Below, in pieces: positions 3,411 through 63,755 of a stretch of DNA of 64,000 nt. The position numbers were made by a program, and so were the translations under genes. The stretch comes from an uncultured virus (IMG/VR IMGVR_UViG_2860815047_000004) (Duplodnaviria; Heunggongvirae; Uroviricota; Caudoviricetes). The stretch lies in IMG/VR virus record IMGVR_UViG_2860815047_000004, one strand, 5' to 3'. Under the pieces are notes generated by a model, which saw only the letters and a list, made by a program, of their open reading frames with translations, was not told the DNA's origin and made no database searches. Position 1 is the stretch's first letter. Each line of letters begins with the position of its first letter.

Positions 3411-3485
3411 GGTTTACATAAAATACGAATTTTAAACAGATGAGTATTCCTTAAAAAATAATTAGAATAAAAATAAAATAAATAC

Positions 3486-3537
3486 TTGTAATTCTGACAA
3501 CTCTAATGTATATTATAAACAAGGGAACATTAGTTGG
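3486..3537 (+). promoter_or_regulatory. aimR promoter with degenerate SOS (Cheo) box
   Basis: TTGTAA-17-TATATT; GGAACATTAGTTGG at 3524-3537. Confidence 0.5.
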
Positions 3538-3555
3538 GAAGGGGTGGAGTAACCA

Positions 3556-4695
3556 ATGAATCTTAAGCAGATGATTAAGAATGAATGTGAAAAAGACAGC
3601 CAGCTCGCAGCGAAACTCTCAAAAATAGCAGGGTACGAAAAGGTTAATGGTTTTTACAAATTCATCAACACCCCAGAGAAAGAAATGGACAACTTAGGCG
3701 GTTTAATTAATATTGTTAAAAGCTTGTTTCCTGATAATGAGGAGCAGCTTCTAAGTGATTACTTCTTATCACTGGATCCCAACAAAAAATGCGCTAGACA
3801 ATCTGTTGAATACTCCGATATCAATCAATGGGATTCATTAACAGACAAGATTATTTTAAATTTATGCCACTCAAAAAACACAACAAGTCAAGAATGGGGC
3901 AACATCTACAACATACATAGAAAGCTATATAAAAACGAAATCTCAATACCAGAAGCAATAAGAGAATGTGGGAGATGTAAAGCTCCAGAAATGTCATTTT
4001 TTTCAGATGCAATGCTGATGTATAAATACTTGAATATTGGTGAGTTCGGATTGATGAAAAGCACCTTAACACTTTTAGATTTTAAAAGCTTACCAGAAGG
4101 ATTTATAAAAGATTCGTACAAAAGTAGAGTGTCAATGTTAAAAGCGAATATAAGCTTAAACGAAAACAATTTAATCGAAGCAAGGAAACATTCAAATATT
4201 GCAATAATGCAGTCCAATGTGAACCGAATATGTTTCTTTGCACATCTGACAATAGGTAATACCCTAATTTTCGAAAATTATGAAGAAGCTATGCTGGCGT
4301 ATGTTGAGGCAAAGAAGTATGTTCTGAATGATACTCATGAAGAAATGCTAAATGGCGCTCTTTGCTTCTTAGCTAATGTATGGATCAAGGAAAATCTATG
4401 GGTTAACTATGAATCAAATGAAATCAAATATCAACAGCTAAGGGCTTTTTATTACATAAAAAGTAATAATCTCGACAAGGCTAACGAATTATTAGAAAAC
4501 TTATCAAAAAGAGATCAAGATGAAAATGAATTAGGATTTTATTTTTATTATAAAGGTTTAATATCGAGGCAAAAATCTGATTTTTTTAAATCAATAACAT
4601 ATTTTAAAGAATCAGATGATAAATATTTTATCCAATTGGCAATAATAGAACTCGAAAAATTAGGCTGTGACCCGGAGCTGCTAAATTTAATTTAG
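3556..4695 (+). CDS. aimR: Arbitrium receptor AimR (RRNPP, HTH plus TPR), phi3T type
   Basis: 379 aa; MIKNECEKD..AGYEKVNGFYKF..LDPNKKCARQSVEYSDINQWD as in phi3T AimR; followed by aimP. Confidence 0.95.
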   Translation: MNLKQMIKNECEKDSQLAAKLSKIAGYEKVNGFYKFINTPEKEMDNLGGLINIVKSLFPDNEEQLLSDYFLSLDPNKKCARQSVEYSDINQWDSLTDKIILNLCHSKNTTSQEWGNIYNIHRKLYKNEISIPEAIRECGRCKAPEMSFFSDAMLMYKYLNIGEFGLMKSTLTLLDFKSLPEGFIKDSYKSRVSMLKANISLNENNLIEARKHSNIAIMQSNVNRICFFAHLTIGNTLIFENYEEAMLAYVEAKKYVLNDTHEEMLNGALCFLANVWIKENLWVNYESNEIKYQQLRAFYYIKSNNLDKANELLENLSKRDQDENELGFYFYYKGLISRQKSDFFKSITYFKESDDKYFIQLAIIELEKLGCDPELLNLI

Positions 4696-4724
4696 AATTT
4701 AGTACTTGAAAGGAGGTGAATTTA

Positions 4725-4856
4725 ATGAAAAAAATTATTTTCGGTACAGCCATTTTAGCATCATTAGCAATTTCATTCATTGCAGGTCAACATTCAGTTA
4801 ATACGGCATCAGCTTCTGATGAGATCTCTGTAGCAAGTGCAATTCGGGGAGCTTAA
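4725..4856 (+). CDS. aimP: Arbitrium pro-peptide AimP, mature peptide SAIRGA (not in ORF track)
   Basis: RBS AAAGGAGGTGA; MKKIIFGTAILASLAISFIAGQHSVNTASASDEISVASAIRGA (43 aa, signal peptide plus hexapeptide). Confidence 0.97.
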   Translation: MKKIIFGTAILASLAISFIAGQHSVNTASASDEISVASAIRGA

Positions 4857-4888
4857 TAATACAACAGGATACTACATAATCAATGGTT

Positions 4889-4920
4889 AGACGTTTGATC
4901 CAGTGGATCAGGCGTCTTTT
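4889..4920 (+). terminator. aimP intrinsic terminator
   Basis: AGACGTTTGATCC-agt-GGATCAGGCGTCT followed by a T-run. Confidence 0.8.
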
Positions 4921-4934
4921 CTAATTTTAAGAGA

Positions 4935-4971
4935 ATGTTCCAGAAATTCATAATATAAAAAACAAGAACAT
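4935..4971 (+). promoter_or_regulatory. AimR operator upstream of aimX
   Basis: ATGTTC-N25-GAACAT; 6-bp inverted repeat with the 25-bp spacer typical of AimR sites. Confidence 0.85.
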
Positions 4972-4983
4972 GGAGGAATTAAA

Positions 4984-5139
4984 ATGAAAAAGCATTTCGG
5001 ACAATCACTTTCTTATGAGGATATGGCTAAGGGATACATGGAAATGGGAGACCTTAACTTAGAAATTTCCCAGGAAGATAATCATCTTGAAAATGAAGCA
5101 GAAATGGTTAGATCAAAATATAAAGCAAAGGTATCCTAA
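4984..5139 (+). CDS. aimX: AimX, 51-aa MazE-mimic lysis promoter (not in ORF track)
   Basis: MKKHFGQSLSYEDMAKGYMEMGDLNLEISQEDNHLENEAEMVRSKYKAKVS; RBS GGAGG; position after the operator. Confidence 0.9.
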   Translation: MKKHFGQSLSYEDMAKGYMEMGDLNLEISQEDNHLENEAEMVRSKYKAKVS

Positions 5140-5958: not shown

Positions 5959-7017
5959 ATGGAAGCTCAAAAGAAAGCGTCAACACTAAGGGATTATTCA
6001 ATATACAATAACATAAATAGGTGGTTTGATGAATTAGATTTAAGAAACAGGGATCGAGAAACTGGAGAAATTGAAAAGTCTAATACTAGAGCCACGTATG
6101 AAAGGCATATAAGAGAGTTTTTCAACCACTATGCTGCCAAGGATATTGAATATTTAACTGAGAGTGACCTGGCGATCAAGAAGAGCGACCTGTATGATTA
6201 TCGAACTCATTTGGCTAAAAATAAAAGTAACTCCAATTCAACAATTAACAATAAGATTGCCGCACTGAAAAGTATGATTAAGTATCTTGAATCTGAACAT
6301 GAGTGTGATTCATCTGTATTTAATTTTAGACCTCTTCCAACAGAAAAGAACCCAGCAGGGTCTTTTGAAGGAATATCTGAAGCTGATGAATTTGCTGAGG
6401 CAGCGTATGTTACTGAGCGTCAGAACAGATTAATGAAAAAGATGTTTATTTTGTTTAGTGCACGTACTGGTGGGCGTAAATCAGAGGTGCTTAGAGTTGG
6501 GTGGGATGATATTACTTATTCAGAAAAGCACCAATGCTATCTCGTCAACTTTAAAAAAACTAAGCAAAAAAAGGCTAGGCCAGTTGGAATTTCCACAGCT
6601 TTCTATGAAGAGTTGTTGCTGTTAAAGCAAGAGTATGGGGAACATGAACTGTTATTTCATAAGTTAACAGTTGATTCAATACAGGATATGTGGAATCGCG
6701 TATGTAGAGTTATGGGTATTCCCAAAGAAAGAAAGATAACTCCGCATAGTTTACGCAATACTGCAACAAACTTTTCTTACAGCGTTAATAGTGATATTAA
6801 AAAAGTGGCAGCGTTCTCTGGTCACAGCAATATCAATACTTTAAATGACCATTATTTAGTCAATGAAAGGGATTATTCTCAAGATCCAGGGGTTTTGGTT
6901 GATCAAAAAGAAGACATGTCCTTTTTAGAAGATGTTACCTTAGAGCAATATAAAGAATTCTTTTTAAAATCAGACATGTATATACAGAGTAAACTTAAAA
7001 TGTTTTTGAACAAGTGA
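5959..7017 (+). CDS. yopP: Tyrosine recombinase-family protein YopP/SroD
   Basis: TGGRKSE (R), TKQKK (K), HSLR (HxxR), GHSNINTLNDHY (H, Y). Confidence 0.88.
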   Translation: MEAQKKASTLRDYSIYNNINRWFDELDLRNRDRETGEIEKSNTRATYERHIREFFNHYAAKDIEYLTESDLAIKKSDLYDYRTHLAKNKSNSNSTINNKIAALKSMIKYLESEHECDSSVFNFRPLPTEKNPAGSFEGISEADEFAEAAYVTERQNRLMKKMFILFSARTGGRKSEVLRVGWDDITYSEKHQCYLVNFKKTKQKKARPVGISTAFYEELLLLKQEYGEHELLFHKLTVDSIQDMWNRVCRVMGIPKERKITPHSLRNTATNFSYSVNSDIKKVAAFSGHSNINTLNDHYLVNERDYSQDPGVLVDQKEDMSFLEDVTLEQYKEFFLKSDMYIQSKLKMFLNK

Positions 7018-7093: not shown

Positions 7094-8443
7094 GTGTCTG
7101 AAGTTTTGTTAACAACGGATAAACTTTATAAGTTAAAAACTGAAATAGAGAAAAATCTTATTGATATTAAAAGTGATTCCAATATGGTGAAGGAATTAAA
7201 AGCCACAATGGCGGACAAATACAAGGCACTCCCTGGTTATATCCAAGAAATTTTAAATAATAATGATAACAACGTACAGCGTTTAAACGAAAAAGAAGTG
7301 TACATTGTTTCAAAAGAGATGTATTCAATTCTTGGGGCTCCAGCTTTAGATCCCTCAAATTATTTTCCAACCAGATTGGCAAAAGAGCTTGAAGGTGGGA
7401 GAGTATTCGCCGGTGAAGAAGTAGTTAAGCTACCATACAAGTTCAAAAATGTGATTAAAATTAAAGAGGATAACTATGTCACTTCCATTACTGCCAAGGA
7501 ACTTAGTGAGTTATATAATAGCTCCATCCTGCAGTACAATTACAATACTCAGCGTGAAGGAAAATACATTAAGGGCAGCCTTATCCCTGTACCTAAAACA
7601 AACCCTAAATCAGTTGATGAGATCAAAGAATTGTTTATTAAAGGCGATTTAATTGTATCAATGCTAACTTTTAACGCTCGTCTTGGAACATCTGATGGTG
7701 ATGAAGAAGTTGAATATGATCCAAGCGACCAAACCCTCACTGTAACACGAGGAACCTTATTAGATGCTCTTGATGGATATCATCGAATTTCAGGTATTGT
7801 TAAGGCCATTGCTGAAGTCCCTGAATTAGATCAACCATTCATTTTAAATGTGCTCAATTACGATGAAGAAAAGGCTAAGGTTCACTTTGCTCAAATGAAT
7901 ACCATAAACCCAGTTGAAAAATCCAGAATTGAAGAATTGGGACAAAAACGGTATTCTTCAACCGTTGTCGAGCAGCTGAAATTTAAAAGTGAACTTAAAA
8001 ATAAAATAAGCCCACAAAGTGAAATTGGTATCGATAGCAATTTCCTTGTAACATATTATACTTTATCAGAAGCTATAGACGATGCATTTGAGCTGAAATC
8101 TCGAAAAGATGCGTTGAAAATTGCGAAATACTTGGTAGACTTTTTTGATAACCTTTTTTATGCCTTCCCAGACGAATTTCTTGAAGATGATTTATCGTCC
8201 ATTAGAAAGCAATCATACATTAATCATAACGTAATGTTTTACGGTTATGTTTATTTGGCCAAGAAGATGAAGGAAAACAATGTAGAACTAAACAAGCTTG
8301 AAAATATCCTTAATACGATTGACTTTAGTAAAAGCGGAAGAGTGTTTGAAGAATTAGGAAGACAAAATAATGAGAATCAACTAAAGAATATTATGAAGAA
8401 GAAACTTAAGCGAATGTTTTATCATGAAATTGCTGTTGTTTAA
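7094..8443 (+). CDS. yopQ: YopQ/SroE, ParB-like/DGQHR-domain repressor component
   Basis: LDGYHR motif; synteny. Confidence 0.85.
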
Positions 8444-8463: not shown

Positions 8464-9447
8464 ATGAGTGAAATATATAATGCTGAATTGAAGGAAAAGT
8501 TTTTAGAGAAATACGAAAGTGAAGCAACAAGAAACCATTATTGGCTAAGGCTAAGGGATTTCTCAGCTACAGAAAAAATACTTCAAAAAGACATATTTAA
8601 TTTTTCTTTGGAAGAGCTGCGTACGTTATTTTTCGATTTGGATAGCAAATCTATAGACTCATTAAGAGGAGCACGAGCTGTAATTGGACAATACACAACC
8701 TGGGCAATGGAAAATGGCTTGGCAAACAGTAACATCAACAAAGTGTATCAGATACAGGATGGTGACTTAAAGCAGTTTATAGATAAAAACAAAAAAACAC
8801 TATTCACCAATAAAGAAGTAGAAGAGTATGTTGATTTTATGATTAATTATCAGGATAAGGCCATGATACAGGCTATTTATGAAGGTATAGATGGTTATCA
8901 GCATTCAGAGTTACTGAATTTAACAGGTGACGATTTACTCGATGATAACAAGGTAAAGCTAGTAGATGATAAACATGGTGTAAGAATAATTACTGTAAGC
9001 GATAAATGTTATGAGTTACTTAAGCGTGCTAATGACCAAAGAACATATCATCTTAGCAATGGTTCGCCAGATAGTAGCCTTAAAAACAAATTTGCCACAT
9101 TAGTTAAAAGCGAAAATATTTTTAGGCTAAAATATAAGAGCTCTAATCAGAGTATGAAAGCTGACAAATTTTTAATTCATCGTTCTTTTAGTCAGTTTCA
9201 AAAATTTTTAGAAGAACCCTTCTTTACACCTAAAAATCTTATCAATTCAGGAAAGCTCAACATGGCGTATGCGATATATAAAGAGAAGGGTGAATTAAAA
9301 GTACCTGATTATAAACAAATAACTCGACAATATGGGTTCTTGAATGAAGACGCGGAGTTTAATTCACAAACACTGAGGAAAGTAGTGAATATGGAGAACT
9401 TAGAAAAATATTGTATCAAGTCTGAAGTAATTGAGACTAATTCTTAA
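8464..9447 (+). CDS. yopR: YopR/SroF/MrpR integrase-fold master repressor
   Basis: 327 aa; integrase-like layout lacking catalytic R and HxxR; synteny. Confidence 0.85.
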
Positions 9448-10782: not shown

Positions 10783-11007
10783 TTGATTAATGAACCAACT
10801 AACAATCAAATAAGAACCATGGTTTTAAAGAAATATGCAAAGCTCTTAGCATCATGTGAAAGGTCTTTGCGCAGCATAGAGAATAATGAAATCAGAATGG
10901 CAATTGGGGATCTAGATTTTGTTAAAGATAATTTAGAGGAAATACAATACATACTTCGTGATGTTGTGAATCAGCATGAATATATTAAGAATAAAAATAA
11001 AATGTAA
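10783..11007 (+). CDS. Hypothetical protein
   Basis: 74 aa; promoter TTTACA..TATAAT and RBS AAGGAG upstream. Confidence 0.65.
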   Translation: MINEPTNNQIRTMVLKKYAKLLASCERSLRSIENNEIRMAIGDLDFVKDNLEEIQYILRDVVNQHEYIKNKNKM

Positions 11008-11039
11008 GTTTTATTGAGTTTTGAAACGAGGGAGGAATA

Positions 11040-13112: not shown

Positions 13113-13153
13113 TTAAAAGATGCATTTTAAACTAAATTAAAAATAAGTGGAGA

Positions 13154-13960
13154 GTGATTAAGGTGGGAAAAGACATTAAAAGTGAGCAAATTGAAGCAAC
13201 CATTAACGAAAATAACGAAATGGGAGTATTTGAACACAGAACTATCCGGGAACAACACATGTACCGGGATGAGATTTTGGATCGGATAAAAGCTGTTCCT
13301 CTTCTAGGGAGCTCTACAGAGATAACAGTTGAGATGGCAGCGGAGTACTACATGGTTCCTGTTGATACGATTAAAACTGTCATCAAAAGAAACAGGAATG
13401 AATTTAATGATTATGCTGAAATAAGAGTTTTGAAAGGTAAGAGTTTAAAAGAATTTTGTCAGGTTCATGATGAACCTCGCAAATTAATAAGCCCAAAAGT
13501 CAGAAGTTTGCAAATCGTTAATCGAAGAGGCCTCCTTAGACTAGGTATGTTGCTTACTGAATCAGAAGTCGGGAAATCAATTAGACATTACTTGTTGAAT
13601 GTAGAGGAAGCAACTCCAAAGCAAATTGCTATCTGGGCAGCACAAAGAGAAATTGCAAGAACAGAAAGAAAACAACTCACAGATGCAATTAAGGAGTTTT
13701 ATGAAGGAAATATGAAGGATTCTCATGCATACACAAACTTTACCCAACTAGTGTATATGGTGTGTTTTGATAAAAACAAAAAGGGTCTAATGGAGGTATA
13801 TGATTTGGATGAAAAGGATCAGCTAAGAGATGCGATGACTACAGAAGATCTTAGAAAAGTCGTACAGGCTGAAAAAGCTATTTCAGTATTGGTTCAATTG
13901 GGCAAAGATTACGCAGAGATCAAAGATGAGCTGCTAAAAAATAAGCACAAGTTTCAATAA
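13154..13960 (+). CDS. Putative phage DNA-binding/antirepressor-like protein
   Basis: TVEMAAEYYMVPVDTIKTVIKRN..RRGLLRLGMLLTESEV; bounded by TAAAA-N6-TTTTA sites. Confidence 0.65.
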   Translation: MIKVGKDIKSEQIEATINENNEMGVFEHRTIREQHMYRDEILDRIKAVPLLGSSTEITVEMAAEYYMVPVDTIKTVIKRNRNEFNDYAEIRVLKGKSLKEFCQVHDEPRKLISPKVRSLQIVNRRGLLRLGMLLTESEVGKSIRHYLLNVEEATPKQIAIWAAQREIARTERKQLTDAIKEFYEGNMKDSHAYTNFTQLVYMVCFDKNKKGLMEVYDLDEKDQLRDAMTTEDLRKVVQAEKAISVLVQLGKDYAEIKDELLKNKHKFQ

Positions 13961-14863: not shown

Positions 14864-15018
14864 TAGTTAATCTTGACTCGGTTGTTTCAACTGTAACCAA
14901 GAAGGAAAGAGATTTTTAATTTAGGCTACAGAATTACAATAAAAAGACTGTTTTAAAGAAAGGGTGAGAACCGATAGTCAATTTCAAAAAATTTAGTGAT
15001 CCTGAATATATTAAGCAG

Positions 15019-15667: not shown

Positions 15668-15868
15668 TTGAATCCTTTTAACTACAGATCTGAACAGAGA
15701 GGATATGAGCAAGAATACTATGGGGGTTATTGTAATCAAGTGAGAAACCTTGGTTTAAAACCTATCCCATTTCACAGGTTTCAGGATTTTTTAAGGGAAA
15801 GCTACAATTCAACAAGAACAAAGAAGGAAAGAATGAGATTTCTAATTAAGATCACAGAATCACAATAA
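15668..15868 (+). CDS. Hypothetical phage protein
   Basis: 66 aa, RBS GGGAGG. Confidence 0.65.
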   Translation: MNPFNYRSEQRGYEQEYYGGYCNQVRNLGLKPIPFHRFQDFLRESYNSTRTKKERMRFLIKITESQ

Positions 15869-16038
15869 AAGGATTATTTCATAGTAAGGAGGAAGGCACA
15901 TAGGTTATTTAAAGCACATAATTGATACAGCCTGGTTTAACTTAGTTTGGTTTAGATGGCATCTTGGAGCGGACATAAGCGTATTTGATGGCTGCGGATG
16001 GAATACATATAAATGCTTAAAGGGTAAAAATAAAATAA

Positions 16039-16699: not shown

Positions 16700-16777
16700 T
16701 TAAAGGGGATTTTCTCAAGGCAATAAACATTAAAGTTAAATTAAAATCGTGATTTTAAACAGAATAGGAGGAAACGA

Positions 16778-17622: not shown

Positions 17623-17707
17623 ATAAAAGATAATTTTCAACTAAACATATAAGGATGGATCGTTATCGAAATTATAAGCAAATCTGATAACGATCGCAGA
17701 GGGGATG

Positions 17708-18482: not shown

Positions 18483-18576
18483 ATGAGAATATTCTAAATG
18501 ATTTTGTGGGCTACAATATTTGGTGATTATTATGGGATCAAAATAAAATAGTTATTTTAAAGGATGTGATTTATTT

Positions 18577-20907: not shown

Positions 20908-21258
20908 ATGAGGGAAATTAAGTTCCGGATGTATTCAAAAAAGAAAAAAGTAATGCACTATTGGGATCATATAAAGCAGTTTCAGTTGGCAGCGCTAGAT
21001 GACAATGATGAAAATGAAAAATACAGTTCATGGATGCAATACACGGGGATGAAGGACAAATACCACCGAGAGATTTATGAGGGGGATATCATTCAAGATG
21101 TAGATGGTTTTCATTGGAGAGTCTACTGGAAAGACGGATCTTTTTGGGCTAAGGGTGGAGAAATGAATGATGATCAACATCTCATAGAACTCGAGTCAGT
21201 CTGGTGGGATGTAGCAGGAAACATTTACGAAGATTCTGAGCTTTTGGAAACTGAATAA
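20908..21258 (+). CDS. YopX-family protein
   Basis: MREIKFR..MQYTGMKDK..EIYEGDII..GNIYE. Confidence 0.9.
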   Translation: MREIKFRMYSKKKKVMHYWDHIKQFQLAALDDNDENEKYSSWMQYTGMKDKYHREIYEGDIIQDVDGFHWRVYWKDGSFWAKGGEMNDDQHLIELESVWWDVAGNIYEDSELLETE

Positions 21259-21291
21259 AAACGATATTTTACAGAAAGAGGATGAATAAAA

Positions 21292-37239: not shown

Positions 37240-37947
37240 ATGAATAAAAATAAAATAAAAGAACACATTTTTAAGTCCGTTTATGGTATGATGATTTTAA
37301 TTCCCTTAGCCACTTTTTCTTACATAAGTTATGAGCAACATTTACATAAAACAGAGGGAAATGAAGACTCAATAAAAGAATCATTTTATAAGAAGCCTAG
37401 ACAAATTAGGATCCCATCAAGTGAAAATATTGTCTTACAGCTTTTTAAAAAAGCTCAAACGAACAAAGAACAACAATTAAAAAGGCATACAGAGAAGATT
37501 ATCTCAACAAAACTCATTAAACCCAAGAAAAGTAAGAAAAGGCACAGGAAGGGAGGTGAGACGGTAAAGCATAAACTTTTTAAGAGTAAAAATAAAATAT
37601 ATAAACACAGAAAAGAAAACAAGACGCCGGCAGCAAAGAAAACCATCCAGGTTAAGCTGAGTGCTTATATTGCCCACTGCCAAGAAGGATGCACAGGAAC
37701 AACTAGAACAGGTGTTGATGTTACTCAATCAATCTATTACAAAGGGTATCGTGTTATTGCAACCGATCCAAGTGTTATTCCTTTGAATTCAATTGTTGAA
37801 GTAAGAATTGGTGGAAATACATTTAAAGCAATTGCAATTGATACTGGAGGCGCAATTATTGGGAATAAAGTGGACTTGCTCGTAGCAACCGAGCGTGACG
37901 CAGTTAATTTTGGTAAACAAAGTGGGACAATCTCGATTATTAGTTAG
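37240..37947 (+). CDS. yorM: 3D-domain cell-wall protein
   Basis: IATDPSVIPL, AIDTGGAI, VDLL; N-terminal TM. Confidence 0.9.
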   Translation: MNKNKIKEHIFKSVYGMMILIPLATFSYISYEQHLHKTEGNEDSIKESFYKKPRQIRIPSSENIVLQLFKKAQTNKEQQLKRHTEKIISTKLIKPKKSKKRHRKGGETVKHKLFKSKNKIYKHRKENKTPAAKKTIQVKLSAYIAHCQEGCTGTTRTGVDVTQSIYYKGYRVIATDPSVIPLNSIVEVRIGGNTFKAIAIDTGGAIIGNKVDLLVATERDAVNFGKQSGTISIIS

Positions 37948-41076: not shown

Positions 41077-41177
41077 ATTTTGACAAGGATGGAGGTGCTC
41101 AAAAAGAGTACCTTTTAAATTCAATATTTTGAGAATGAAAATAAAATATCTCTTTTATAGAGAAAGGGGAGACTGTA

Positions 41178-41945: not shown

Positions 41946-41994
41946 TAAATCACTCCATATAATTTATTTTTATTCTAAATAAAATTGATCTTTT
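41737..41994. mobile_element. Invertible segment flanked by perfect 19-bp inverted repeats
   Basis: AAAAGATCAATTTTATTTA (41737-41755) and TAAATAAAATTGATCTTTT (41976-41994). Confidence 0.9.
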
Positions 41995-42703
41995 GCTAGG
42001 CGGGAGTCCATGTCAGAACCTCACTATAACTGTAGCTGATCGAGAAGAGCATTTTACAGGATTGGCAGGAGATAAATCAAAATTGTTCTTTGAGTATGTG
42101 AGGGCCTTAAAAACAGTTAAGCCCAGGTATTTTTTATATGAAAATGTTGAGAGCATGAAAGAGAAGGATAAAGAAACGATTACTAAGAACTTAGGCGTTG
42201 AACCAATAATGATAGACAGTGGACTACTTTCTGCACAGGAAAGAAAAAGATATTACTGGACTAACATTCCAAACGTTAAACAACCCAATGAAAGGCACCA
42301 GGTCTTAGCAGATATTCTTGAGGAAAACGTTGATGAAAAATATTATTACAATCTTAATTATGATTTTTATGGGTTGCATAAGCGAGTAGCTGCAAGGCTC
42401 GATTTATACAACTATGATATTTTACAAAGGGTATACAGTCCTCATTTTAAAGCTCCAACCTTAACAGCATGTAGAGGTGGTCATAAGCAAAAGAAAGTTA
42501 TACATAATGATAGAGTTAGAAAGCTTACTCCTCTGGAATACGAGAGACTGCAAACGGTGCCTGAAGGTTATACAAAAGGTGTTGCAGACAGTCATAGATA
42601 CAACATGCTTGGGGACGGATGGACAGTTGATGTAATAGCTCATATTTTAAGCTACGCTGATTTTTCAACGTCAAAGGGAGTGCAAACAGAAGCGGCAATT
42701 TAA
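41993..42703 (+). CDS. C-terminal part (motifs IV-X) of the C5-cytosine methyltransferase
   Basis: GGSPCQ, YENV, QERKR, RLQTVP, LGDGW; no RBS of its own. Confidence 0.92.
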   Translation: MLGGSPCQNLTITVADREEHFTGLAGDKSKLFFEYVRALKTVKPRYFLYENVESMKEKDKETITKNLGVEPIMIDSGLLSAQERKRYYWTNIPNVKQPNERHQVLADILEENVDEKYYYNLNYDFYGLHKRVAARLDLYNYDILQRVYSPHFKAPTLTACRGGHKQKKVIHNDRVRKLTPLEYERLQTVPEGYTKGVADSHRYNMLGDGWTVDVIAHILSYADFSTSKGVQTEAAI

Positions 42704-42744
42704 ATAAAATTTGTCTTTTAAAGAGTAAAAATAAAATACGAGAG

Positions 42745-44873: not shown

Positions 44874-44929
44874 GAGTAAAAATAAAATATTCCTTTTATC
44901 GAGATTCAAATGAAATGGAGAGATGTTAA

Positions 44930-45769: not shown

Positions 45770-45955
45770 GAGGCTATTTAAAGCAATCAATTATAAATAA
45801 AATTCAATTTTTATAAAGAAAGGAGCAACTGAAATGCAGGATAAATTAACTTCAGCAGTTCGCTTTATTGAGGTTAATCGGGATGAAATGGGTGACAAGA
45901 AATCACTAAACATGCTTTTAAAAGCCTTAAAGAAAATCATCAATGAGGGAGAAAA

Positions 45956-46696: not shown

Positions 46697-46710
46697 AGGA
46701 GAGATATTTA

Positions 46711-47058: not shown

Positions 47059-47069
47059 CGAGGAGAAAC

Positions 47070-47408: not shown

Positions 47409-47434
47409 CTGGATAAAGATTGAGGAGGATTGTA

Positions 47435-47806: not shown

Positions 47807-47843
47807 ATAAAAGTTTTATTTCATTGAAAACGAGGGGCGAATA

Positions 47844-48137
47844 ATGAAAAGTTTTGAAAAACTTGTTGTAATTGATGGATATCAATTTAGAATCACATTC
47901 TTTGCCAAAGAAACCAGTCGCCTCGGACAGTGGTTAATAGACGAAGTTGTGGTTAAGGACAATGAAAAAAACAAAGTTGTATACCGAGGCAATCCATTCT
48001 TCGGAAGTGCCCAGACACTTAAAGGTGCGTTTGAAGAGTCTGCAAGAGCTGCAAGAAAACGTTTATTAAGAAGCAAAGAAATTAATAACGATATTAAAGA
48101 ATTGGAAAGCTGGGATGGAGTTATAAATTTTAATTAA
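47844..48137 (+). CDS. Hypothetical phage protein
   Basis: C-terminus DIKELESWDGV; bounded by TAAAA-N6-TTTYA sites. Confidence 0.7.
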   Translation: MKSFEKLVVIDGYQFRITFFAKETSRLGQWLIDEVVVKDNEKNKVVYRGNPFFGSAQTLKGAFEESARAARKRLLRSKEINNDIKELESWDGVINFN

Positions 48138-48349
48138 AAGGATGATTTTAAGGAGTTGATTAGACATTAGTATAAGTCAAAGGCAGTCTCAACGTATTCG
48201 GGAAGCTCTGATAAGTTCAAATGCAACTGCTGAGGAAATTGGAATGGATAAAGCATTATCAGAAGTTCTCGATCTACTCAAGAGAAGAATTTTGGAGCTG
48301 GAATCTTTGTATTATCCAGAGTGGGAATATGAAAATGCAAAAGTGAAGC

Positions 48350-48661: not shown

Positions 48662-48695
48662 ATAAAATCACAGTTTCATAGGAAGGGGAAGTAGT

Positions 48696-48845: not shown

Positions 48846-48863
48846 AGAAAAGGGAGTTGTGGA

Positions 48864-52150: not shown

Positions 52151-54137
52151 TTGACGAACGCAAACGAAATCCATACGGCGGCCGATTGGTCGCGGCACGA
52201 AGACGACTTTACCCAAATGTTTTACAACCAAAACGTAAAGCAGTTTTGGCTTCCGGAAGAGATCGCATTAAACGGCGATCTTCTCACTTGGAAGTATTTG
52301 GGTAAAAATGAGCAGTATACGTACATGAAGGTGCTCGCCGGCCTGACACTGCTTGATACAGAGCAGGGGAACACGGGCATGCCGATTGTGGCCGAGCACG
52401 TCGAAGGCCATCAGCGGAAAGCGGTTCTTAATTTCATGGCGATGATGGAAAACGCGGTGCACGCGAAGTCTTACAGCAACATCTTTCTAACTTTGGCTCC
52501 AACCGAGAAGATCAATGAAGTCTTCGAATGGGTGAAAAACAATAGGTTTCTTCAAAAGAAAGCAAGAACAATTGTTTCAATTTATAAAGCAGTTCAGAAA
52601 AACGATGATATTTCCTTATTCAAAGCAATGGTTGCATCTGTGTTTCTGGAAAGTTTCCTTTTCTACTCAGGGTTTTATTATCCACTTTACTTTTATGGAC
52701 AAGGGAAGCTCATGCAGAGCGGGGAAATTGTGAATTTGATTATCCGTGACGAAGCCATTAAGTGCTAGTGGCATTTAGCAGTAATGTTAAATGAAAACCT
52801 ATCTAAAAAGGGGAAATCTTATAGCTAAGATAATCCTTTGCTAAATTCTAATCATCATTAAATTCAATATTTAGGAGTGTTGCCTTGTATTATGTCTATA
52901 TGATAATGAATAAACAAAATAAGAAGATTTACATTGGCTTAACCAAAAATGTTAACAACGCTGACGATAGATTTAAACAACATATTCGCTATTTAAAAGG
53001 AAACTATCATCATAATCATAAATTGCAAAGAGACTTTAACTTGCATAAATGCACTGATATGTATACACATCACTTATTATGCAAATGTTCTAGCATCAAA
53101 CTTGCTGAAAAAATGGAGAAGTTTTTCATTGCATACTATAACAGTAAATATTGTGGATTTAACCTAAATGACGGCGGGCTTTCAAATAAAGGATACAAGC
53201 AATCTGATTATGCAAAAAAGGTTGCAAGTGAAGTTCACTCTAAGCTAATTGGAGAAAAAAATCCTTTCTTTGGAAGACGACATTCTGAGAAAACAAAAAT
53301 GATTATTTCTAAAAAGAACAAAGGGAGAAATAAAGGTATCCCTAAGAGCGATAGTCATATAAAGAAAATGATTGAAAACAATGCTAGAGCAAAAAAAGTC
53401 TTCGTTGGCGGTCAAATATACAGCAGTTGTTCGCAAGCTCAATTACATACGGGCATAGACAGGAAGAAAATATCAAAGCTTGCATCAGACGATTCAATAA
53501 CAAACATATACTTTATAAAATAAAAACAATTTTAATGATGATTAGATAAATGCCCAACGACTATTCCATTGGCGGTGGAATTCCGCAACAGAAGTAGGGC
53601 GCAAGTGATTGGCGTGGGTGAGAATCCCTTAAATCGAAACGGTAGGAATCCTAAATTAGGATTGTGATATAGTCTGCTCTGCATGGCGACATGCAGCTGT
53701 GGTTAGTCCACGCTTTAAGTATAGCGAACTTAAGGGAACATCAAGGACATGGAACATATATCGGTTTATTAGCTCAAGAGATATATAAGAAACAAACGCC
53801 TCAGAAGCAAAAAGAACTGTATGAATGGGCTTTATGCTTGCTACAAGAGCTTTATGAAAATGAATTGGAGTATACAGAAGATGTTTATGATCAGGTTGGT
53901 TTAGCTCCAGATGTAAAGAAATTCATCAGATACAACGCAAATAAAGCATTAAACAACTTGGGCTTTGATCATCTGTTCGAGGAAGAAGACGTTAACCCAA
54001 TCGTTATTAATGGATTGAGTACTAAAACTAAGTCGCATGACTTCTTTAGCCAAAAAGGGAATGGGTACAAAAAAGCAACGGTGGAGCCATTAAAGGATTC
54101 AGATTTCATTTTTACCGAGAAAGGATGTATTCAATGA
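52151..54137 (+). CDS. nrdF: Class Ib RNR beta subunit; exons 52151-52758 and 53747-54137 (332 aa)
   Basis: [15 protein letters not shown], spliced RDEAI|HG, HDFFS. Confidence 0.94.
52759..53746 (+). ncRNA. Group I intron in nrdF (988 nt) carrying a homing endonuclease
   Basis: P1 GCCAT/GTGGC with U.G pair; GATATAGTCT core; terminal G; splice rebuilds an ATA codon. Confidence 0.92.
52885..53523 (+). CDS. Intron-encoded GIY-YIG homing endonuclease with NUMOD3 motif
   Basis: [31 protein letters not shown]. Confidence 0.9.
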   Translation: MYYVYMIMNKQNKKIYIGLTKNVNNADDRFKQHIRYLKGNYHHNHKLQRDFNLHKCTDMYTHHLLCKCSSIKLAEKMEKFFIAYYNSKYCGFNLNDGGLSNKGYKQSDYAKKVASEVHSKLIGEKNPFFGRRHSEKTKMIISKKNKGRNKGIPKSDSHIKKMIENNARAKKVFVGGQIYSSCSQAQLHTGIDRKKISKLASDDSITNIYFIK

Positions 54138-54373
54138 GATTAATTAAATTAGAGCAGCCAAATTGCAATCCCTGCAAAATGGTGTCCAATTACTTAAATG
54201 ATGCAGGAGTCAAATATGAGACAGTTGATGTAACACAGAATCCGGAAGTGGCAGCACAATTTGGTGTCATGGGTGTACCGGTAACTTTCTTGCTTAATGA
54301 GCAAGGAGAAGAAGTAAAGCGGAGTATTGGTTTTAAGCCTAATGAACTTGATGAGTTGTTAAAGGAATTATGA
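54134..54373 (+). CDS. yosR: NrdH/thioredoxin-like redoxin
   Basis: CNPC active site, GVPV. Confidence 0.9.
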
Positions 54374-54633
54374 AAAAAGGGTGATTTTATTGTAATTAAA
54401 AGGGAGGGCTGACCATATTCGGTTGGAATTTTAACAGGCTTTTGTGGTGGAAGTACATATTGTTATTGGTTTTTTTAATCACTATAATACCCTTATGGAT
54501 AATTGATTGGATAACCTTCTGCAAGATTAAACGTGTAGACTGGATTATTCAACGGTACTCAGATTGGGTTGCTTATTTAATTTTTGGATAATAGATGTTT
54601 CACATAAAAAACTAAAGGAGTTAATAAAACATA

Positions 54634-55062
54634 ATGCAAATTAAAATCAAATATTTAGATGATACACAAACAAGGATCAGCAAAATTGAGAAAGGGGATT
54701 GGATTGATCTCCGAGCGGCTGAAGATGTAGCAATCAAAAAGGACGAATTTAAACTTATCCCTTTAGGAGTAGCAATGGAGCTACCGGAAGGATATGAGGC
54801 TCATGTTGTTCCACGTTCAAGTACATTTAAAAACTTTGGCATCATTGAGACAAACTCAATGGGTGTTATTGATGAGTCCTACAAGGGAGACAATGATTTC
54901 TGGTTCTTTCCGGCTTATGCATTACGGGATACAGTAATTAAAAAAGGGGAACGTATCTGTCAGTTCAGAATCATGGAGAAGATGCCTGCAGTTGAATTGA
55001 TTGAGGTAGATCATTTAGGCAACAATGATCGAGGAGGTCATGGATCGACTGGAACTAAGTAA
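54634..55062 (+). CDS. dut: dUTPase
   Basis: [25 protein letters not shown]. Confidence 0.95.
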
Positions 55063-55160
55063 CAGAAGACAAGTCCTGACTGAGGTCTTAATGATGTGTG
55101 TCTCCAGTGGAGGGGTGCAGTCAGGACTCTTTATAAAGTACCCTGTTCTTAAGAATTTAA

Positions 55161-55595
55161 TTAAGCTTTTGCTTCTTGTTTGGCATTATCGCAATACAAT
55201 TGGTAAAGCTCTGAATCATCCCAGCCATTAAAGTCTTTTTGCTCGGGAATGTATGCGGAAATATTAAGTTGCTGACCTTTATTGGTATAGTCTGATGTAA
55301 ATTCATCCATCTCCGTATAAATAATGACCTTCTTAAATGGAGAAGTTGGTGAGATTGCATTTTTAATTACTTCTAAAATCCTGCTAACACCAGTTTTATT
55401 TGGTTGAAGTGTTTCTTTTAGCAACGAAATAACTTCTTCAATGCAGTTGATGGCAGATGTGCTTTTATGTTTTAAGTTGTCATAAACATGAAGAATTTCC
55501 TTGTCCATTTCATATGTGTAGGTAAATGCACTCTTGCTATGGAAACCTACATTTTTAATAGAACCTTGAATAATAGGATATTGAGTAATGCTCAT
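55161..55595 (-). CDS. Hypothetical protein
   Basis: 144 aa, RBS AAGGTGG. Confidence 0.65.
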   Translation of the reverse strand: MSITQYPIIQGSIKNVGFHSKSAFTYTYEMDKEILHVYDNLKHKSTSAINCIEEVISLLKETLQPNKTGVSRILEVIKNAISPTSPFKKVIIYTEMDEFTSDYTNKGQQLNISAYIPEQKDFNGWDDSELYQLYCDNAKQEAKA

Positions 55596-55619
55596 TAAAT
55601 ATTACCACCTTTTCGTATA

Positions 55620-55916
55620 TTGAGAATTTTGAGACAAGTATATTATACCAGTAATCAGGAAAAAGGACTAAATAAAAGAAGACTTTTATCTAAAACAATA
55701 AGGAGGAAAAAGACCATAAACAAAAACAGTTATAAAGATTTGCAAGCAAAATATGACAACATGCTCTTCAGGAATGGTCTGTGTTTAGGATTTATTCAAA
55801 AACATGGGCTTGAAGATGTGTTTTTGGAGCATATGAAACAAGTTGCAGCTTATGAAGAAGACCAAAGGTATAGAGTTGCAGCAGTTAATTTTTTGAGTTT
55901 ATTAGAATCAAATTAA
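55620..55916 (+). CDS. Hypothetical protein (true start probably near 55716)
   Basis: RBS AAGGAGG at about 55700 lies inside the called ORF. Confidence 0.5.
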   Translation: MRILRQVYYTSNQEKGLNKRRLLSKTIRRKKTINKNSYKDLQAKYDNMLFRNGLCLGFIQKHGLEDVFLEHMKQVAAYEEDQRYRVAAVNFLSLLESN

Positions 55917-55935
55917 AACAAAAAGGGGCAAAGAT

Positions 55936-56202
55936 ATGGAAAATATTTATCGCTATTATAAATTAAACAAAGGATTACAGGCTGTGAAAGTTGTCTCTGA
56001 GTTGTTTCCTAAAGAAAGCGAAGCTTATAGAGAACTGATTAAAATTGAAATTGGAATTTTGGAGGAAAAGAGAGAGCTTCTTAATGGCAAAGGAAAAGTG
56101 AACAAACTGGATCAGAAACAAAAAACAGACCTGGGAAGACAGCTAACAGATAAGCTCGATGAAGTTTTAGAAATTGTTGAAAGGTTTAGCAATCATGGAT
56201 AA
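55936..56202 (+). CDS. Hypothetical protein
   Basis: 88 aa. Confidence 0.7.
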   Translation: MENIYRYYKLNKGLQAVKVVSELFPKESEAYRELIKIEIGILEEKRELLNGKGKVNKLDQKQKTDLGRQLTDKLDEVLEIVERFSNHG

Positions 56203-56494
56203 ACACATAGAGAAAATAAAAGCCCATCTAAAAGAAATAGAAAATCTTAAACAAGGCCTCCAATTATTTAGCGAGGATGAAGAGGAACATATAAGCTTAC
56301 TAGCTAAGATTCAACATCAGTTTGATTTAATTTCAGACGAATCAATGGAAGGGTTTAAAGAGTTAACTTTACATATAAGAAATACAGGTCAGAAAAGAAT
56401 ACAACGGGGAATTGACCAGCTGCCTCATGCAATTAAAGAAAGTGTAAGTGAAGACATCAAAGACATGAAGAGAGCTGGAGAGTTGTTTGATTAG
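56195..56494 (+). CDS. Hypothetical helical protein
   Basis: ORF coupled to the previous gene. Confidence 0.65.
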   Translation: MDKHIEKIKAHLKEIENLKQGLQLFSEDEEEHISLLAKIQHQFDLISDESMEGFKELTLHIRNTGQKRIQRGIDQLPHAIKESVSEDIKDMKRAGELFD

Positions 56495-61145: not shown

Positions 61146-61184
61146 AATGAGTCACTCATATGTTCACCAAAGGAGGTGAATAAA

Positions 61185-61223
61185 ATGCCAGTAGTACTTT
61201 ATGGATTTGGAAGAGGAGCATAA
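61185..61223 (+). CDS. 12-aa mini-peptide MPVVLYGFGRGA ending in an arbitrium-type hexapeptide
   Basis: Strong RBS AAAGGAGGTGA at canonical spacing; terminator directly after the stop. Confidence 0.7.
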   Translation: MPVVLYGFGRGA

Positions 61224-61247
61224 AAAGAGAGGGGACAGACCCCTCTT
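61224..61247. terminator. Hairpin between the mini-peptide and the sspC remnant
   Basis: AGAGGGG-acag-ACCCCTCT region; A-run on the left. Confidence 0.7.
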
Positions 61248-61249
61248 GA

Positions 61250-61309
61250 TTAATGAAATTGGCCATTCATACTTTGTTGGGCTAGGCGAACTAAACGCTT
61301 TGTAATCAT
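61250..61309 (-). pseudogene. sspC: 3' remnant of alpha/beta-type SASP gene
   Basis: Minus strand reads ITKRLVRLAQQSMNGQFH*, the SspC C-terminus; the 5' three quarters are missing. Confidence 0.85.
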
Positions 61310-61326
61310 GAACAATAAACAAAGGA

Positions 61327-62271
61327 GTGAAATGTATAGGCATTATTAAAGAACAAAAGGTTGAGGTCAGCTGGAATCCTATGACATCGAGACACTATCA
61401 AACACTAGGATATGAATTTACCTTTTGGAGGGATAAATTTCATGTGCCATATTATCATTTACCACTTACTTCTGAAAAAATGGTTTTAGTTTCTTGTGAC
61501 AAAGAGAAATGCACAAATGTTAAGTCAGTTAAATATAATGAATTTAACCGGTTGTACAAAAATAAAAAATATGAATGTAAAAAACATAGCCATTCTTATT
61601 ATGAGGATAAAGCGAGGGAAAGAGGGTTTATTTTAACATCAGAATACAAAGGTGTAAAAGGTAAAGTTGATTTGATCTGTTTAAAGAATGGTCATAAATC
61701 AACAAAATTGTGGTCTCAAATTAATAATGGATCTAAATGTTTAAAATGTCATCAGGAAAGCCTGAAATTGAGCATTGATTATATTAAAGAAGAATTCTTA
61801 AAGAAAAACTTATTGCTTTTATCAAATGAATACGCCAACGAAAAGAGCAAGTTAGCTTTTAAATGTAAGAATGGACACTATGGAGAAATTGCGTGGAACT
61901 ATTTTCAACAAGGAGGGGGATGCCAGCAGTGCTATAGGAAGAGTCGTTTTAGAGAAGGTAATCCGAGGTGGAATAAGAATAAAACTGATACTCAGAGGAT
62001 AAATGACAGAAAGTATCGTGAATATTTACAGTGGAGAAAGAAAGTTCTACAGAGGGATGATTACACATGTCAAAAATGCTGGCTTAAAAAGAAAAAATAT
62101 TTAACTGCTCACCATATCTATAATTATATGGAGCATAAAGATATTCGACTAGAAGTTGATAACGGGTTGACCTTGTGTGATTCTTGCCATGAACATTTTC
62201 ATAATACATATGGATACACTAACAACAATTATATGCAACTGTTTATGTACTTAAACAAAGAAGGGGGATAA
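61327..62271 (+). CDS. Free-standing HNH endonuclease with zinc-ribbon repeats
   Basis: [23 protein letters not shown]; repeated C..GH..CxxC units. Confidence 0.9.
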
Positions 62272-62272
62272 T

Positions 62273-63100
62273 ATGAAAATCGATTATGTTTCAGATCTTC
62301 ATATTAATCACTGGATACCTTGGAACAATAACCAAATCAAATGGGAAAAGCGAACAAGGGAGATTATTAGAAGGTTAATATCGAATGGAAATGGTGAGGT
62401 ATTAATAATTGCCGGTGATTTTACTGAGTGGAATCAACAGACACTGTGGGTACTTGATGAAGTAGCAAAGCAGTATGAAAAGGTTTACTTCACATATGGT
62501 AATCATGATCTTTATTTACTCAGTAAAAATCAGCAACGAAAATATTCCGATTCATTGGGAAGAGTGAAAGATTTAATTCAGAAGGCAGCAGACATCAATA
62601 ATGTCACTCCATTAATAAAGTCTACGGATACATACAAAGGAAAAGTCTTTGCTGGAGATGTCATGTGGTATCTTCCAAAAGGAAATGAAGGATGGGATTT
62701 CTTCAAAGGTGTCTCTAATGATTCAAACTATATCAGTCTTAATGGATACAGCAAAGAAGATGGAGTACGAGCAATGTGGAAAGAATCAATGGGATGGTAT
62801 GACACTCTTGAAAATGCACAAGTTGATGTATTTGTCTCACATGTTCCACCTGTTCACAATCCTTATTCTCCATTTGAGCCTAATACATGCTACATGGTTG
62901 ATGTCCCGTTCATTAACGCAAAACATTGGGTTTGTGGCCATGATCATTTACAAGCTGAGTTTGACAAAGATGGAACGAGCTTTCACATGAACTGTATTGG
63001 ATATCCGTATGACTATGATAATTATCCGAGTGTCAATGTGATACCTGGTGAAGAAGTAGATTCATATAAAACGTTTGAGCTTAAGACATTTGAGATTTAG
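62273..63100 (+). CDS. yotB: Calcineurin-like metallophosphoesterase
   Basis: SDLH, AGD, GNHD, SHVPP, GHDH. Confidence 0.92.
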
Positions 63101-63334
63101 ATTCAGTTAAAATTCTAATTTTATTTAAAAGGGGGAGTGATAATATGTTTAATGTTTCAAAAGCAATTAAGGAAATGTCAAAAGAAAGTGCTACCGTTGT
63201 AGATAACAGCATATTAAATGAAGTTGGTGAGATTCTTAATGGCTTAAATGTTGATTTCACAACAGCAAAAATAGATAGAAAAACAACGAAACTACGCTTA
63301 GATTGATAAAATATTGGTTTAATCTCTAAAGTGC

Positions 63335-63715
63335 TTGAAAAGGGGAGTTATGGTTTTGAATAAGAGAATAAAGAAGAAGATTCGAAATAGAGTTGAATCA
63401 TGGATTATTTATAAAAATCCTAATGGGTCATATAATTCATTGGGTGTAAACAAATTTGGAGAAGTACCCTCCCATGCACGCCCTTTGCATCCTGAATATG
63501 AAACACTAGGAGAGGTCTTAAATTCATTCCCTAAAGGATTTTGCTTTCCTTTGGTTGAGTTGACAAAAGAAGAAGAAAACATGTTGTTCTTTGATCATTA
63601 CCCTATAGAGTGCGGCGGCTGGCATACAGGAGATAGAGATACGTGGGGAATTTGGGGACAGAGATATTTATTGAAAAAGGTATCGGATGGGTGTTGCGAA
63701 TACGTCTCAAAATAA
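63335..63715 (+). CDS. Hypothetical protein
   Basis: ORF; likely start at 63350 after GGGGAG. Confidence 0.65.
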   Translation: MKRGVMVLNKRIKKKIRNRVESWIIYKNPNGSYNSLGVNKFGEVPSHARPLHPEYETLGEVLNSFPKGFCFPLVELTKEEENMLFFDHYPIECGGWHTGDRDTWGIWGQRYLLKKVSDGCCEYVSK

Positions 63716-63755
63716 AATATTTATTTTCTATTTTATCCAGAGAGGGGAAATGATA

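Follow-up and report, generated by a model that had tools for sequence, protein, structure and literature searches.

Palindromic words with slot-specific centres at gene junctions of SPbeta-like Bacillus phages: candidate joints for in-register recombination

How mosaic phages come to swap non-homologous genes with joints exactly at gene borders is a long-standing question, which goes back to the "linker" idea of modular phage evolution. The same question is raised by a stretch of 64,000 nucleotides from an uncultured virus (IMG/VR record IMGVR_UViG_2860815047_000004, Caudoviricetes), here called the window, which is that half of an SPbeta-like Bacillus prophage that holds the early and accessory genes. 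At many of its gene junctions stands the word TAAAANNNNNNTTTYA (TAAAA-N6-TTTYA), in which two short inverted arms enclose a 6-bp centre. A reading of the window from its sequence only had taken such words for the borders of integron-like gene cassettes, with the centres as slot addresses. We compared the window with SPbeta, phi3T, and 47 IMG/VR loci (34 around a homologue of YosL and 13 for the left part of the window). With moderate confidence, we favor the view that the words are in-register recombination joints at the gene junctions of SPbeta-like phages, in which the centre serves as the address, as in Xer and pdif sites.

The word and its place between genes

The sequence-only reading had proposed to count the word against a composition-matched shuffle. 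In the window, it gives 40 strand matches, compared with 3.47 ± 1.92 (maximum 9) in 100 dinucleotide-preserving shuffles. The matches represent 23 distinct places, close to the earlier estimate of about 25. Seventeen are perfect palindromes (TAAAA-N6-TTTTA), four have TTTCA as the right arm, and two are found on the minus strand only, with TGAAA as the left arm. The positions are listed in Table 1.

The sites mostly follow right after a stop codon and stand right before a ribosome-binding site. By our own gene calls, which are crude, the stop codon ends in the range from 3 nt inside the site to 8 nt ahead of it in 12/23 cases, and a start codon lies 10–40 nt downstream in 13/23. All 12 positions for which an association with stop codons had been claimed fit the ends of open reading frames (ORFs): four overlap the stop codon (13958, 15866, 21256, and 48135), six lie 1 nt past it (13114, 17624, 24086, 42705, 47808, and 48663), and two lie 6–7 nt past it (41736 and 63108). 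The copy at 24086 keeps its place at the stop codon and drops out as an exact motif, with one mismatch in its right arm (TTTAA). Each of the three genes described as bracketed (13154-13960, 41178-41729, and 47844-48137) is indeed flanked by two sites, and none of the sites lies between 21256 and 37373, the replication core. The copy at 61473 is inside an HNH ORF and looks like a chance match. Of the 36 places of the word in SPbeta, which are spread over the early and late regions, 31 lie outside annotated genes, and the flanks of the sites follow the direction of the adjoining genes.

For the anatomy of the site, 51 copies from the window and SPbeta were aligned in gene orientation; the arms TAAAA and TTTTA are invariant in 51/51 because the copies were selected for them. 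Position 1 of the centre weakly prefers G or T, and position 6 prefers A or C. The six bases beyond each arm show a weak, roughly mirror-symmetric preference (left T-Y-T-R-R-A, right W-W-B-A-R-A), which may partly stem from stop codons, often located at -3 to -1, and from the purine-rich stretch ahead of the ribosome-binding site. Two inverted half-sites around a central region of 6–8 bp are the layout of a tyrosine-recombinase core site, and the word has this layout with a centre of 6 bp. In such core sites, each monomer of the recombinase covers a half-site of some 10–13 bp; beyond its 5-bp arms, the word has the weak outer preference described above. The earlier assignment to this architecture (short inverted arms, 6-bp centre, and choice of partner by centre identity) appears to be borne out by the comparisons reported below.

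On the gene strand, the word is located about 17–21 nt upstream of many start codons. This fixed place would also suit a word acting in the mRNA as a hairpin, a processing site, or a translational signal upstream of the ribosome-binding site. As RNA, however, the stem formed by the arms is unstable (+0.7 to +2.2 kcal/mol), and 32-mers around the sites have no better folding energy than 32-mers drawn at random from the window (-1.49 vs -2.28 kcal/mol). In the 51 aligned copies, the left and right outer positions do not covary, and Watson–Crick pairs are about as frequent as expected. Hence, the word is not maintained as a hairpin, and we discarded an RNA hairpin or terminator as its identity; a scan of 40500-49500 found no terminator-like match at the sites. 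The conserved centres specific to each slot are left unexplained as well, and we regard a function in RNA as very improbable.

A palindrome around a 6-bp centre that looks unconstrained also has the classical shape of a dimer operator, and its many copies are dispersed over short intergenic spaces of long operons. A phage regulator could bind them with no role in recombination, either as silencer sites like the "stoperators" of mycobacteriophage L5 or as a second target of MrpR or YopP. Both proteins are reported to be made in lysogens (preprint; PMC10516654). MrpR is described as a repressor with a tyrosine-recombinase fold, and its operator is the SPbeta repeated element, SPBRE (Kohm et al. 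2023, PMC10516654). The ChAP-seq data described in that paper comprise 10 peaks with SPBRE as the motif, which is a sequence other than the word. We rejected the identity of the word with this 15-bp motif: the 15-mer best shared by the ten promoter regions of SPbeta that MrpR binds is A/T-rich, unrelated, and ends in ATATGTATAT, and TAAAA-N6-TTTTA occurs at -300 to +200 in only 4/10 of these regions. The SPbeta-type SPBRE is absent from the window (one match at three mismatches, 2.34 expected), while the arms of the word are unchanged. Thus, the word does not co-vary with the immunity region. Binding by a regulator alone predicts neither centres that are conserved 6/6 amid replaced flanks nor breakpoints at the edges of the core (see the next section), and we consider it improbable. 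The window does encode an MrpR homologue; in the absence of the SPbeta-type SPBRE, this repressor presumably reads a different operator (hetero-immunity).

Identity of the word with a YonO promoter found no support, as the sites are located in early and late regions. The YonO paper reports one start site upstream of yonK and gives no promoter sequence. The exact 16-mer TAAAAGGATGATTTTA occurs in 95 unclassified stretches of IMG/VR, which is of the same order as chance in a collection of that size and permits no conclusion.

A second repeated word, AGAATAAAAATAAAAT, has 26 matches in the window at two or fewer mismatches, 24 of them on the gene strand, with 1.25 expected. It is found at 3464, 10698, 10988, 44612, 49395, 56509, 58977, and 59066, and in 18 weaker copies; seven copies are perfect and direct. 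It often follows a junction site and precedes the ribosome-binding site, and at three positions (10988, 41132, and 44873) its terminal TAAAAT is the left arm of the site. The word is oriented and -10-like and could be a promoter element of the phage. In old records of the methylase genes of rho11s and H2, -10 and -35 signals are marked in the corresponding leader.

Table 1 Junction sites and selected genes of the window (positions refer to the 64,000-nt window)
Feature	Position	Strand	Remarks
Junction site, centre TACGAA	3419..3434		Upstream of aimR homologue; same centre and place in 13/13 loci (L043-L055)
AimR	3556-4695		Pfam
YopP-like tyrosine recombinase	5959-7017	+	Catalytic R-K-HxxR-H-Y kept; candidate reader of the sites
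YopQ homologue, DndB-like (DNA-sulfur-modification-associated) domain	7094-8443		PF14072, E 5e-16; between YopP-like recombinase and MrpR
MrpR (YopR) homologue, master repressor	8464-9447	+	Binds an element other than the junction sites
Junction site, centre TGTAAG	10998..11013		Same centre in SPbeta at 83688 (neither flank homologous) and phi3T at 76355 (weak left-flank match only)
Junction site, centre GATGCA	13114..13129		Window-SPbeta homology stops 8 nt past it
Junction site, centre GTAAAA	13958..13973		TAA is the stop of ORF 13154-13960; SPbeta homology from 13961
Junction site, centre AGACTG	14940..14955		Three different flank combinations across window, SPbeta, and phi3T
Junction site, centre GGATTA, right arm TTTCA	15866..15881	+	
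Junction site, centre TCGTGA	16742..16757		SPbeta homology stops at 16758
Junction site, centre GATAAT, right arm TTTCA	17624..17639	+	SPbeta homology from 17623; SPbeta slot has GATAGT
Junction site, centre TAGTTA	18544..18559		
Junction site, centre ACGATA	21256..21271		Overlaps stop of ORF 20857-21258
One-mismatch copy, right arm TTTAA	24086..24101	+	
AAA_24 protein	27374-28345		Pfam
Site, centre GAATCA	37373..37388		Inside YorM-like ORF 37240-37947; centre varies in relatives (4 variants)
Junction site, centre TATCTC	41142..41157		14/14 copies identical
Junction site, centre GATCAA	41736..41751		Left end of inversion; centre identical in 29/29
Inverted 228-bp segment	41752..41979	-	Leader, ribosome-binding site, and first ~72 codons of C5-cytosine methylase
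Internal inverted GATCAA core, one arm mismatch (last base), TAAAATTGATCTTTTG	41980..41995		In methylase frame, codes K-I-D-L-L; right end of inversion
Remaining 3' part of methylase gene	41996..42703	+	Starts at motif GGSPCQ; PF00145
Junction site, centre TTTGTC	42705..42720		25/25 identical
Junction site, centre TATTCC	44883..44898		Homology of X5 and X9 contigs lost inside, at 44890
Junction site, centre TTCAAT	45798..45813		X5 and X9 contigs homologous again from exactly 45798
Junction site, centre GTTTTA, right arm TTTCA	47808..47823	+	29/29 identical
Junction site, centre GGATGA	48135..48150		Overlaps stop of ORF 47844-48137; 32/33 identical
Junction site, centre TCACAG, right arm TTTCA	48663..48678	+	21/21 identical; X1 contig begins at 48662
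Degenerate copy, left arm AAAAA, centre GGGTGA	54374..54389	+	Slot holding GGGTAA in relatives
Junction site, centre GAAGAC	55673..55688		
Junction site, left arm TGAAA	60991..61006	-	Ribosome-binding site follows
Junction site, centre TTCTAA	63108..63123		

Centres, breakpoints and an inversion across relatives

Between the window and SPbeta, 12 pairs with identical centres were found among 21 x 35 site pairs, with 0.62 expected, and 12/12 are collinear. Their 60-nt flanks are homologous on neither side in eight pairs, on one side in four, and on both sides in none. The 34 IMG/VR loci (±10 kb around YosL-like homologues with 45–97% amino acid identity) contain only 20 different centres among all their sites. 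These follow each other in a constant order: GAATCA, TATCTC, GATCAA, TTTGTC, (GAAACT), TATTCC, TTCAAT, GTTTTA, GGATGA, TCACAG, (GGGTAA), GAAGAC/GAATAC, and CTAATA. The left part of the window shows the same fixed pattern of centres in the 13 further loci. The expectation that spacers are conserved per slot in relatives holds for GATCAA (29/29), GTTTTA (29/29), TTTGTC (25/25), TCACAG (21/21), and GGATGA (32/33), and each of these centres occurs with many flank types.

The genes next to a given site belong to unrelated protein families (blastp E > 1e-4); for GTTTTA, there are six upstream and nine downstream families, counted over the cases with a called ORF. The flank types of the two sides reassort: four-gamete quartets occur at 7/13 addresses. 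A measure of same-slot divergence in which the slot is set by the centre itself is circular and was replaced by slots set by one homologous flank. In these, centres differ at 4.2% of positions and the flank at 25.8%, and the centre is identical in 125/146 pairs. Together, these sequence comparisons support the view that the 6-bp centre behaves as a slot address, which keeps a fixed order and is conserved while both flanks change.

An identical 40-nt flank is shared by 477 site pairs, of which 25 differ in the centre, 14 of these by 3–5 bases. Thus, the same flank can adjoin different addresses, and such pairs may represent relocated cassettes or replaced sites. A 12-mer scan for conserved islands in 36 loci gave, among the listed blocks of up to 60 nt, nine that overlap a site, and seven of these have low left flanks (mean 2.0–3.1 of the 36 loci). 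The scan is noisy, as AT-rich words recur. A few islands have no site, for example 45355-45388 and 53608-53642. The former, a 34-nt sequence that is no junction site, is present in at least half of the 36 relatives and has poorly conserved flanks.

The sequence-only reading had proposed to test whether breakpoints of gene gain and loss fall within the spacers. In 380 distinct same-centre pairs in which only the right flank is homologous, homology is lost at a median of 1 nt outside the 16-bp core (287 within 3 nt). The corresponding median is 2 nt for 305 pairs with homology on the left only (170 within 3 nt). The loss occurs well short of the ribosome-binding site or start codon. The arm variant TTTCA travels with the right flank type (TCACAG 19/19, GTTTTA 3/3), as expected if the exchange takes place at or left of the right arm.

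Between SPbeta and phi3T, a breakpoint is found at 13/31 site-bearing gene junctions and at 25/152 junctions without a site (odds ratio 3.7, p 0.003). For the window and SPbeta, the values are 8/31 and 17/152 (p 0.036), calculated over the whole SPbeta genome, of which the window covers a part. A 3.2-kb block with 99.97% identity between SPbeta and phi3T has its start 1 nt ahead of one site and its end within the following site, and several other blocks start or stop at most 10 nt from a site. Contigs of four public sequencing runs (X1, X4, X5, and X9) were compared with 36500-56400 wherever they cover it. Homology resumes exactly at 45798 in two runs, one contig starts at 48662, and homology is lost within sites at 44890 and 41148. 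These data support the sites as joints at which relatives appear to differ.

All centres of the window differ from each other, as had been claimed, except for GATCAA at 41736-41751 and its inverted copy with one mismatch at 41980-41995. These two cores are the only ones in the window with matched centres, and they are the exact ends of a 228-bp inversion that splits the gene of a C5-cytosine methylase. In two relatives (L025 and L010), the methylase gene is intact, and both the upstream GATCAA site and the internal inverted copy (K-I-D-L-L) are present. Both relatives have the segment in the opposite orientation, and L025 is 100% identical to the window on both methylase parts. The opposite orientation is also found in a contig of run X5, where 19 letters fit either side of the joint. 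Within any of the 50 sequences, which contain 406 exact sites, there are no direct duplicates with the same centre, and the GATCAA pair is the only inverted one. As few duplicates are expected by chance, the absence of direct duplicates alone is weak evidence. The sole place where cores with matching centres coexist is thus also the sole place with a rearrangement between cores, and, judged by comparison, recombination seems to occur only between matching central regions. The methylase gene (41712-42703) is split as it stands; hence, it cannot yield a full-length enzyme.

Ordinary recombination at a word kept for other reasons deserves consideration here. According to this linker model, a regulatory or structural word stands at the junctions, short-homology recombination (RecA or phage annealing) uses its 16 identical bases, and the conserved centres result only secondarily from repeated exchange. 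The model accounts for reassorted flanks and for breakpoints at the edges of the core as well as the favored one does. Suitable enzymes may be at hand, as the window encodes an AAA_24 protein, a family which we take to include Sak4-type phage recombinases, and a RecJ-like exonuclease (31541-33271). In T4-type phages, genes are documented to be exchanged at conserved short motifs between genes (PMC2839356), and short-homology exchange has been proposed for the promoter/terminator cassettes of these phages, the promoter-early stem-loops (PeSLs). What the model leaves unexplained is the presence of the same palindromic arms at every slot and an inversion between inverted copies of 15–19 bp. In addition, the 16-mer AGAATAAAAATAAAAT appears to be tolerated in its seven perfect direct copies; hence, 16 identical bases alone seem not to destabilize the genome. 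If the word is taken for a PeSL, the stable stem is missing, and matches to sigma-70-type promoters in 40500-49500 number 30 compared with 36.3 in shuffles. We therefore consider the linker model unlikely, though it retains more weight than binding by a regulator alone.

Proposed exchange and candidate recombinases

For the site-specific exchange that we favor, we suggest the following course. The two shared inverted 5-bp arms would form the binding site for a dimer of one protein. Related genomes would meet in one cell, either as a prophage and a superinfecting phage or by co-infection, and two copies that share their centre would exchange strands within the 16-bp core. Because same centres pair, the exchange would always be in register. 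The left side of one phage would be joined to the right side of the other, even if the adjoining genes have no homology, and two such exchanges would replace a gene or a block. A genome would not delete or invert parts of itself, as no two of its centres match. Where a matching inverted copy has arisen by accident, as inside the methylase gene, the segment between the two has been inverted. The most likely chemistry would be that of an Xer-type tyrosine recombinase that needs identity in the 6-bp central region. We infer the action of a recombinase, its need for centre identity, and the responsible protein alike.

In its full form, the proposal states that SPbeta-like phages carry about 35 ordered, addressed sites and that one Xer-like recombinase, encoded by the phage or the host, reads the arms while the centre limits exchange to the same slot of another phage. 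Hetero-immune, non-homologous relatives would thereby swap single genes in register, and an accidental matching copy would make an inversion switch. This full form is possible and falls somewhat short of probable.

Candidate enzymes are the YopP-like and YomM-like proteins of the phage and the host Xer proteins CodV and RipX. The YopP-like protein of the window keeps the residues R, K, HxxR, H, and Y; its best alignment is to archaeal XerA (4a8e, E 0.009), in which the catalytic residues of the two proteins coincide. The YopP proteins of the window and phi3T both carry HSLR. YomM, a second recombinase-like protein, is encoded in the late region, and its versions in SPbeta and a window-like phage share 87% identity. 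Of four records, one gave no match to YomM and another a weak match only; these two records are incomplete. Arms that are invariant across hetero-immune phages fit a conserved reader; hence, CodV and RipX are candidates too. MrpR is an unlikely recombinase for the sites; it is reported to be without catalytic residues and to give no recombination in vitro (PMC10516654).

Several observations weigh against site-specific exchange by such an enzyme. The YopP proteins of SPbeta and the window share only 33% identity, and that of SPbeta carries HSFK instead of HxxR; the arms are nonetheless invariant. YomM has HLFK. Strict conservation is limited to the inner 5 bp of each arm, and the outer positions are weak. 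An identical 16-bp core could in principle serve short-homology recombination. The pair counts for centre identity, families, reassortment, edge offsets, and flank-defined constraint are not phylogenetically independent. The sites are also not the sole joints: between SPbeta and phi3T, 30/74 breakpoints are inside genes and 25 junctions without a site are hit, and some replacements in the contigs of relatives end 11–24 nt from a site or nowhere near one. The "s" fragment of phi3Ts has no bounding sites. For laboratory hybrids of phi3Ts and SPbeta, 15/16 junctions are reported to be in ordinary homologous regions (preprint).

The one remaining hybrid junction is reported in the same preprint as "non-homologous" and "following yosA". 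An SPbeta site at 116415 falls between yorZ and yosA and may be linked to this junction. The right 48 kb of the hybrid phage Hyb1 is all phi3Ts-like, with no SPbeta/phi3T crossover in this part. In SPbeta YopP and YomM (L002 28691-29767; L001 40301-41302), Lys stands at the second catalytic Arg (HSFK and HLFK, respectively).

No description of the word was found in the SPbeta review, the preprint on SPbeta relatives, the MrpR paper, the YonO paper, or the full-text literature searches, a scope outside which the genome paper of Lazarevic et al. 1999 lies. New are the methylase inversion and its un-inverted twins, the breakpoint offsets at nucleotide resolution, the test of constraint on centres with slots set by a flank, the condition of the candidate recombinases, and the separation of the word from SPBRE, the MrpR operator with which it is easily confused. 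In a model that is genetically tractable (SPbeta and phi3T of Bacillus subtilis), the joints can be seen and counted, and each has its own label, so that the question of mosaic exchange becomes directly testable. If the proposal is true, these large phages would have a site-specific substitute for homologous recombination that leaves the gene order unscrambled. If the address rule holds, it would amount to a natural in-register cassette replacement, would explain the turnover of accessory genes such as methylases in these prophages, and could serve as a set of orthogonal recombination sites.

As for the genomic context, the window shares only patches with SPbeta (70–93% identity), and an 8-kb probe from it was covered to at most 21% by any single record of the phage collection. 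Domain names are Pfam assignments. The YorF-YorL replication block includes a DnaB-like helicase, the RecJ-like exonuclease, and the DNA polymerase III alpha subunit (33284-37213). Two DNA methylases are encoded, the C5-cytosine methylase and, upstream of it, a separate N6/N4 methylase (38877-39833). Further genes encode a split ribonucleotide reductase, dUTPase, thymidylate synthase, and dihydrofolate reductase. A protein with a HicB-like antitoxin domain (PF15919) is encoded at 2984-3394, directly upstream of the aimR junction site. The large subunit of ribonucleotide reductase is in pieces, as in SPbeta (ORFs 49521-50291, 50575-50946, and 50943-51920). The small subunit is split into 52151-52768 and 53691-54137, with an ORF for a GIY-YIG/NUMOD3 endonuclease (52885-53523) between the parts. 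The 35-nt island 53608-53642 is conserved in many relatives and is consistent with a putative group I intron core.

Comparison with known systems

Integrons: attC sites are long imperfect palindromes that are used as folded single strands, and their cassettes are excised as circles and inserted at attI. The single genes of the window that are bracketed by sites resemble such cassettes, whereas the site is a 16-bp core of the duplex type. Neither a folded site of the attC type nor an integron platform (attI, IntI, or Pc) is present in the window. Two sites around a gene are not equivalent and always have different centres; hence, the cassette cannot be excised as a circle. The term integron-like is therefore unsuitable, and of the earlier idea of a cassette exchange system, the slot addresses are retained on the basis of the comparisons and the excision of circles is not. 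The expected reaction would instead be an in-register exchange between two phage genomes. A shared trait is that integron sites, too, are described as being read by a tyrosine recombinase (PMC8876359).

SPBRE: This is likewise a repeated intergenic element of the same phage and is read by a protein with a tyrosine-recombinase fold. It differs in sequence, and it has about 10 copies, which are located at promoters.

PeSLs: The PeSLs of T4-type phages are described as repeated intergenic motifs in variable regions where genes are inserted, deleted, or replaced (PMC2839356). Both systems thus have short motifs of this kind in a large phage, together with gene turnover. PeSLs combine a sigma-70 promoter with a stable terminator hairpin, and their copies are alike and can lead to mini-circles, whereas the word of the SPbeta-like phages forms no stable hairpin, comes with no excess of promoter-like matches in 40500-49500, and has unique centres.

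Xer sites with a single recombinase: Xer sites are described as two inverted half-sites that flank a central region of 6 bp, in which the strands are cleaved and exchanged, and the inner arms of difH and difSL end in GAAAA (PMC5357621). This end is close to TAAAA and TGAAA of the word, and the archaeal XerA to which the YopP-like protein aligns best belongs to the same group (difH/XerH, difSL/XerS, and archaeal dif/XerA). These are single chromosomal sites for dimer resolution with conserved arms of 10–11 bp, whereas the phages have about 35 sites per genome with 5 bp per arm strictly conserved and no evident role in dimer resolution.

pdif: In Acinetobacter plasmids, many sites composed of arm, 6-bp spacer, and arm are reported to flank accessory genes and to be used by the host XerC/XerD (PMC13141974, PMC6449649). 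Inversion, deletion, and module replacement are described between identical or near-identical 6-bp spacers (PMC13141974). In the phages, too, a matched pair is tied to an inversion, and modules are replaced between sites with the same centre. The arms of pdif are asymmetric, with XerC and XerD halves, and the sites alternate in orientation, whereas the arms of the word form a perfect 5-bp palindrome, and its orientation can come from the centre only. The pdif sites are located on plasmids and depend on a host enzyme, whereas the present sites are part of a phage of 125–135 kb. Each slot of these phages has its own centre in an order fixed throughout the family, which would lead to allelic, in-register exchange rather than to the shuffling of module order.

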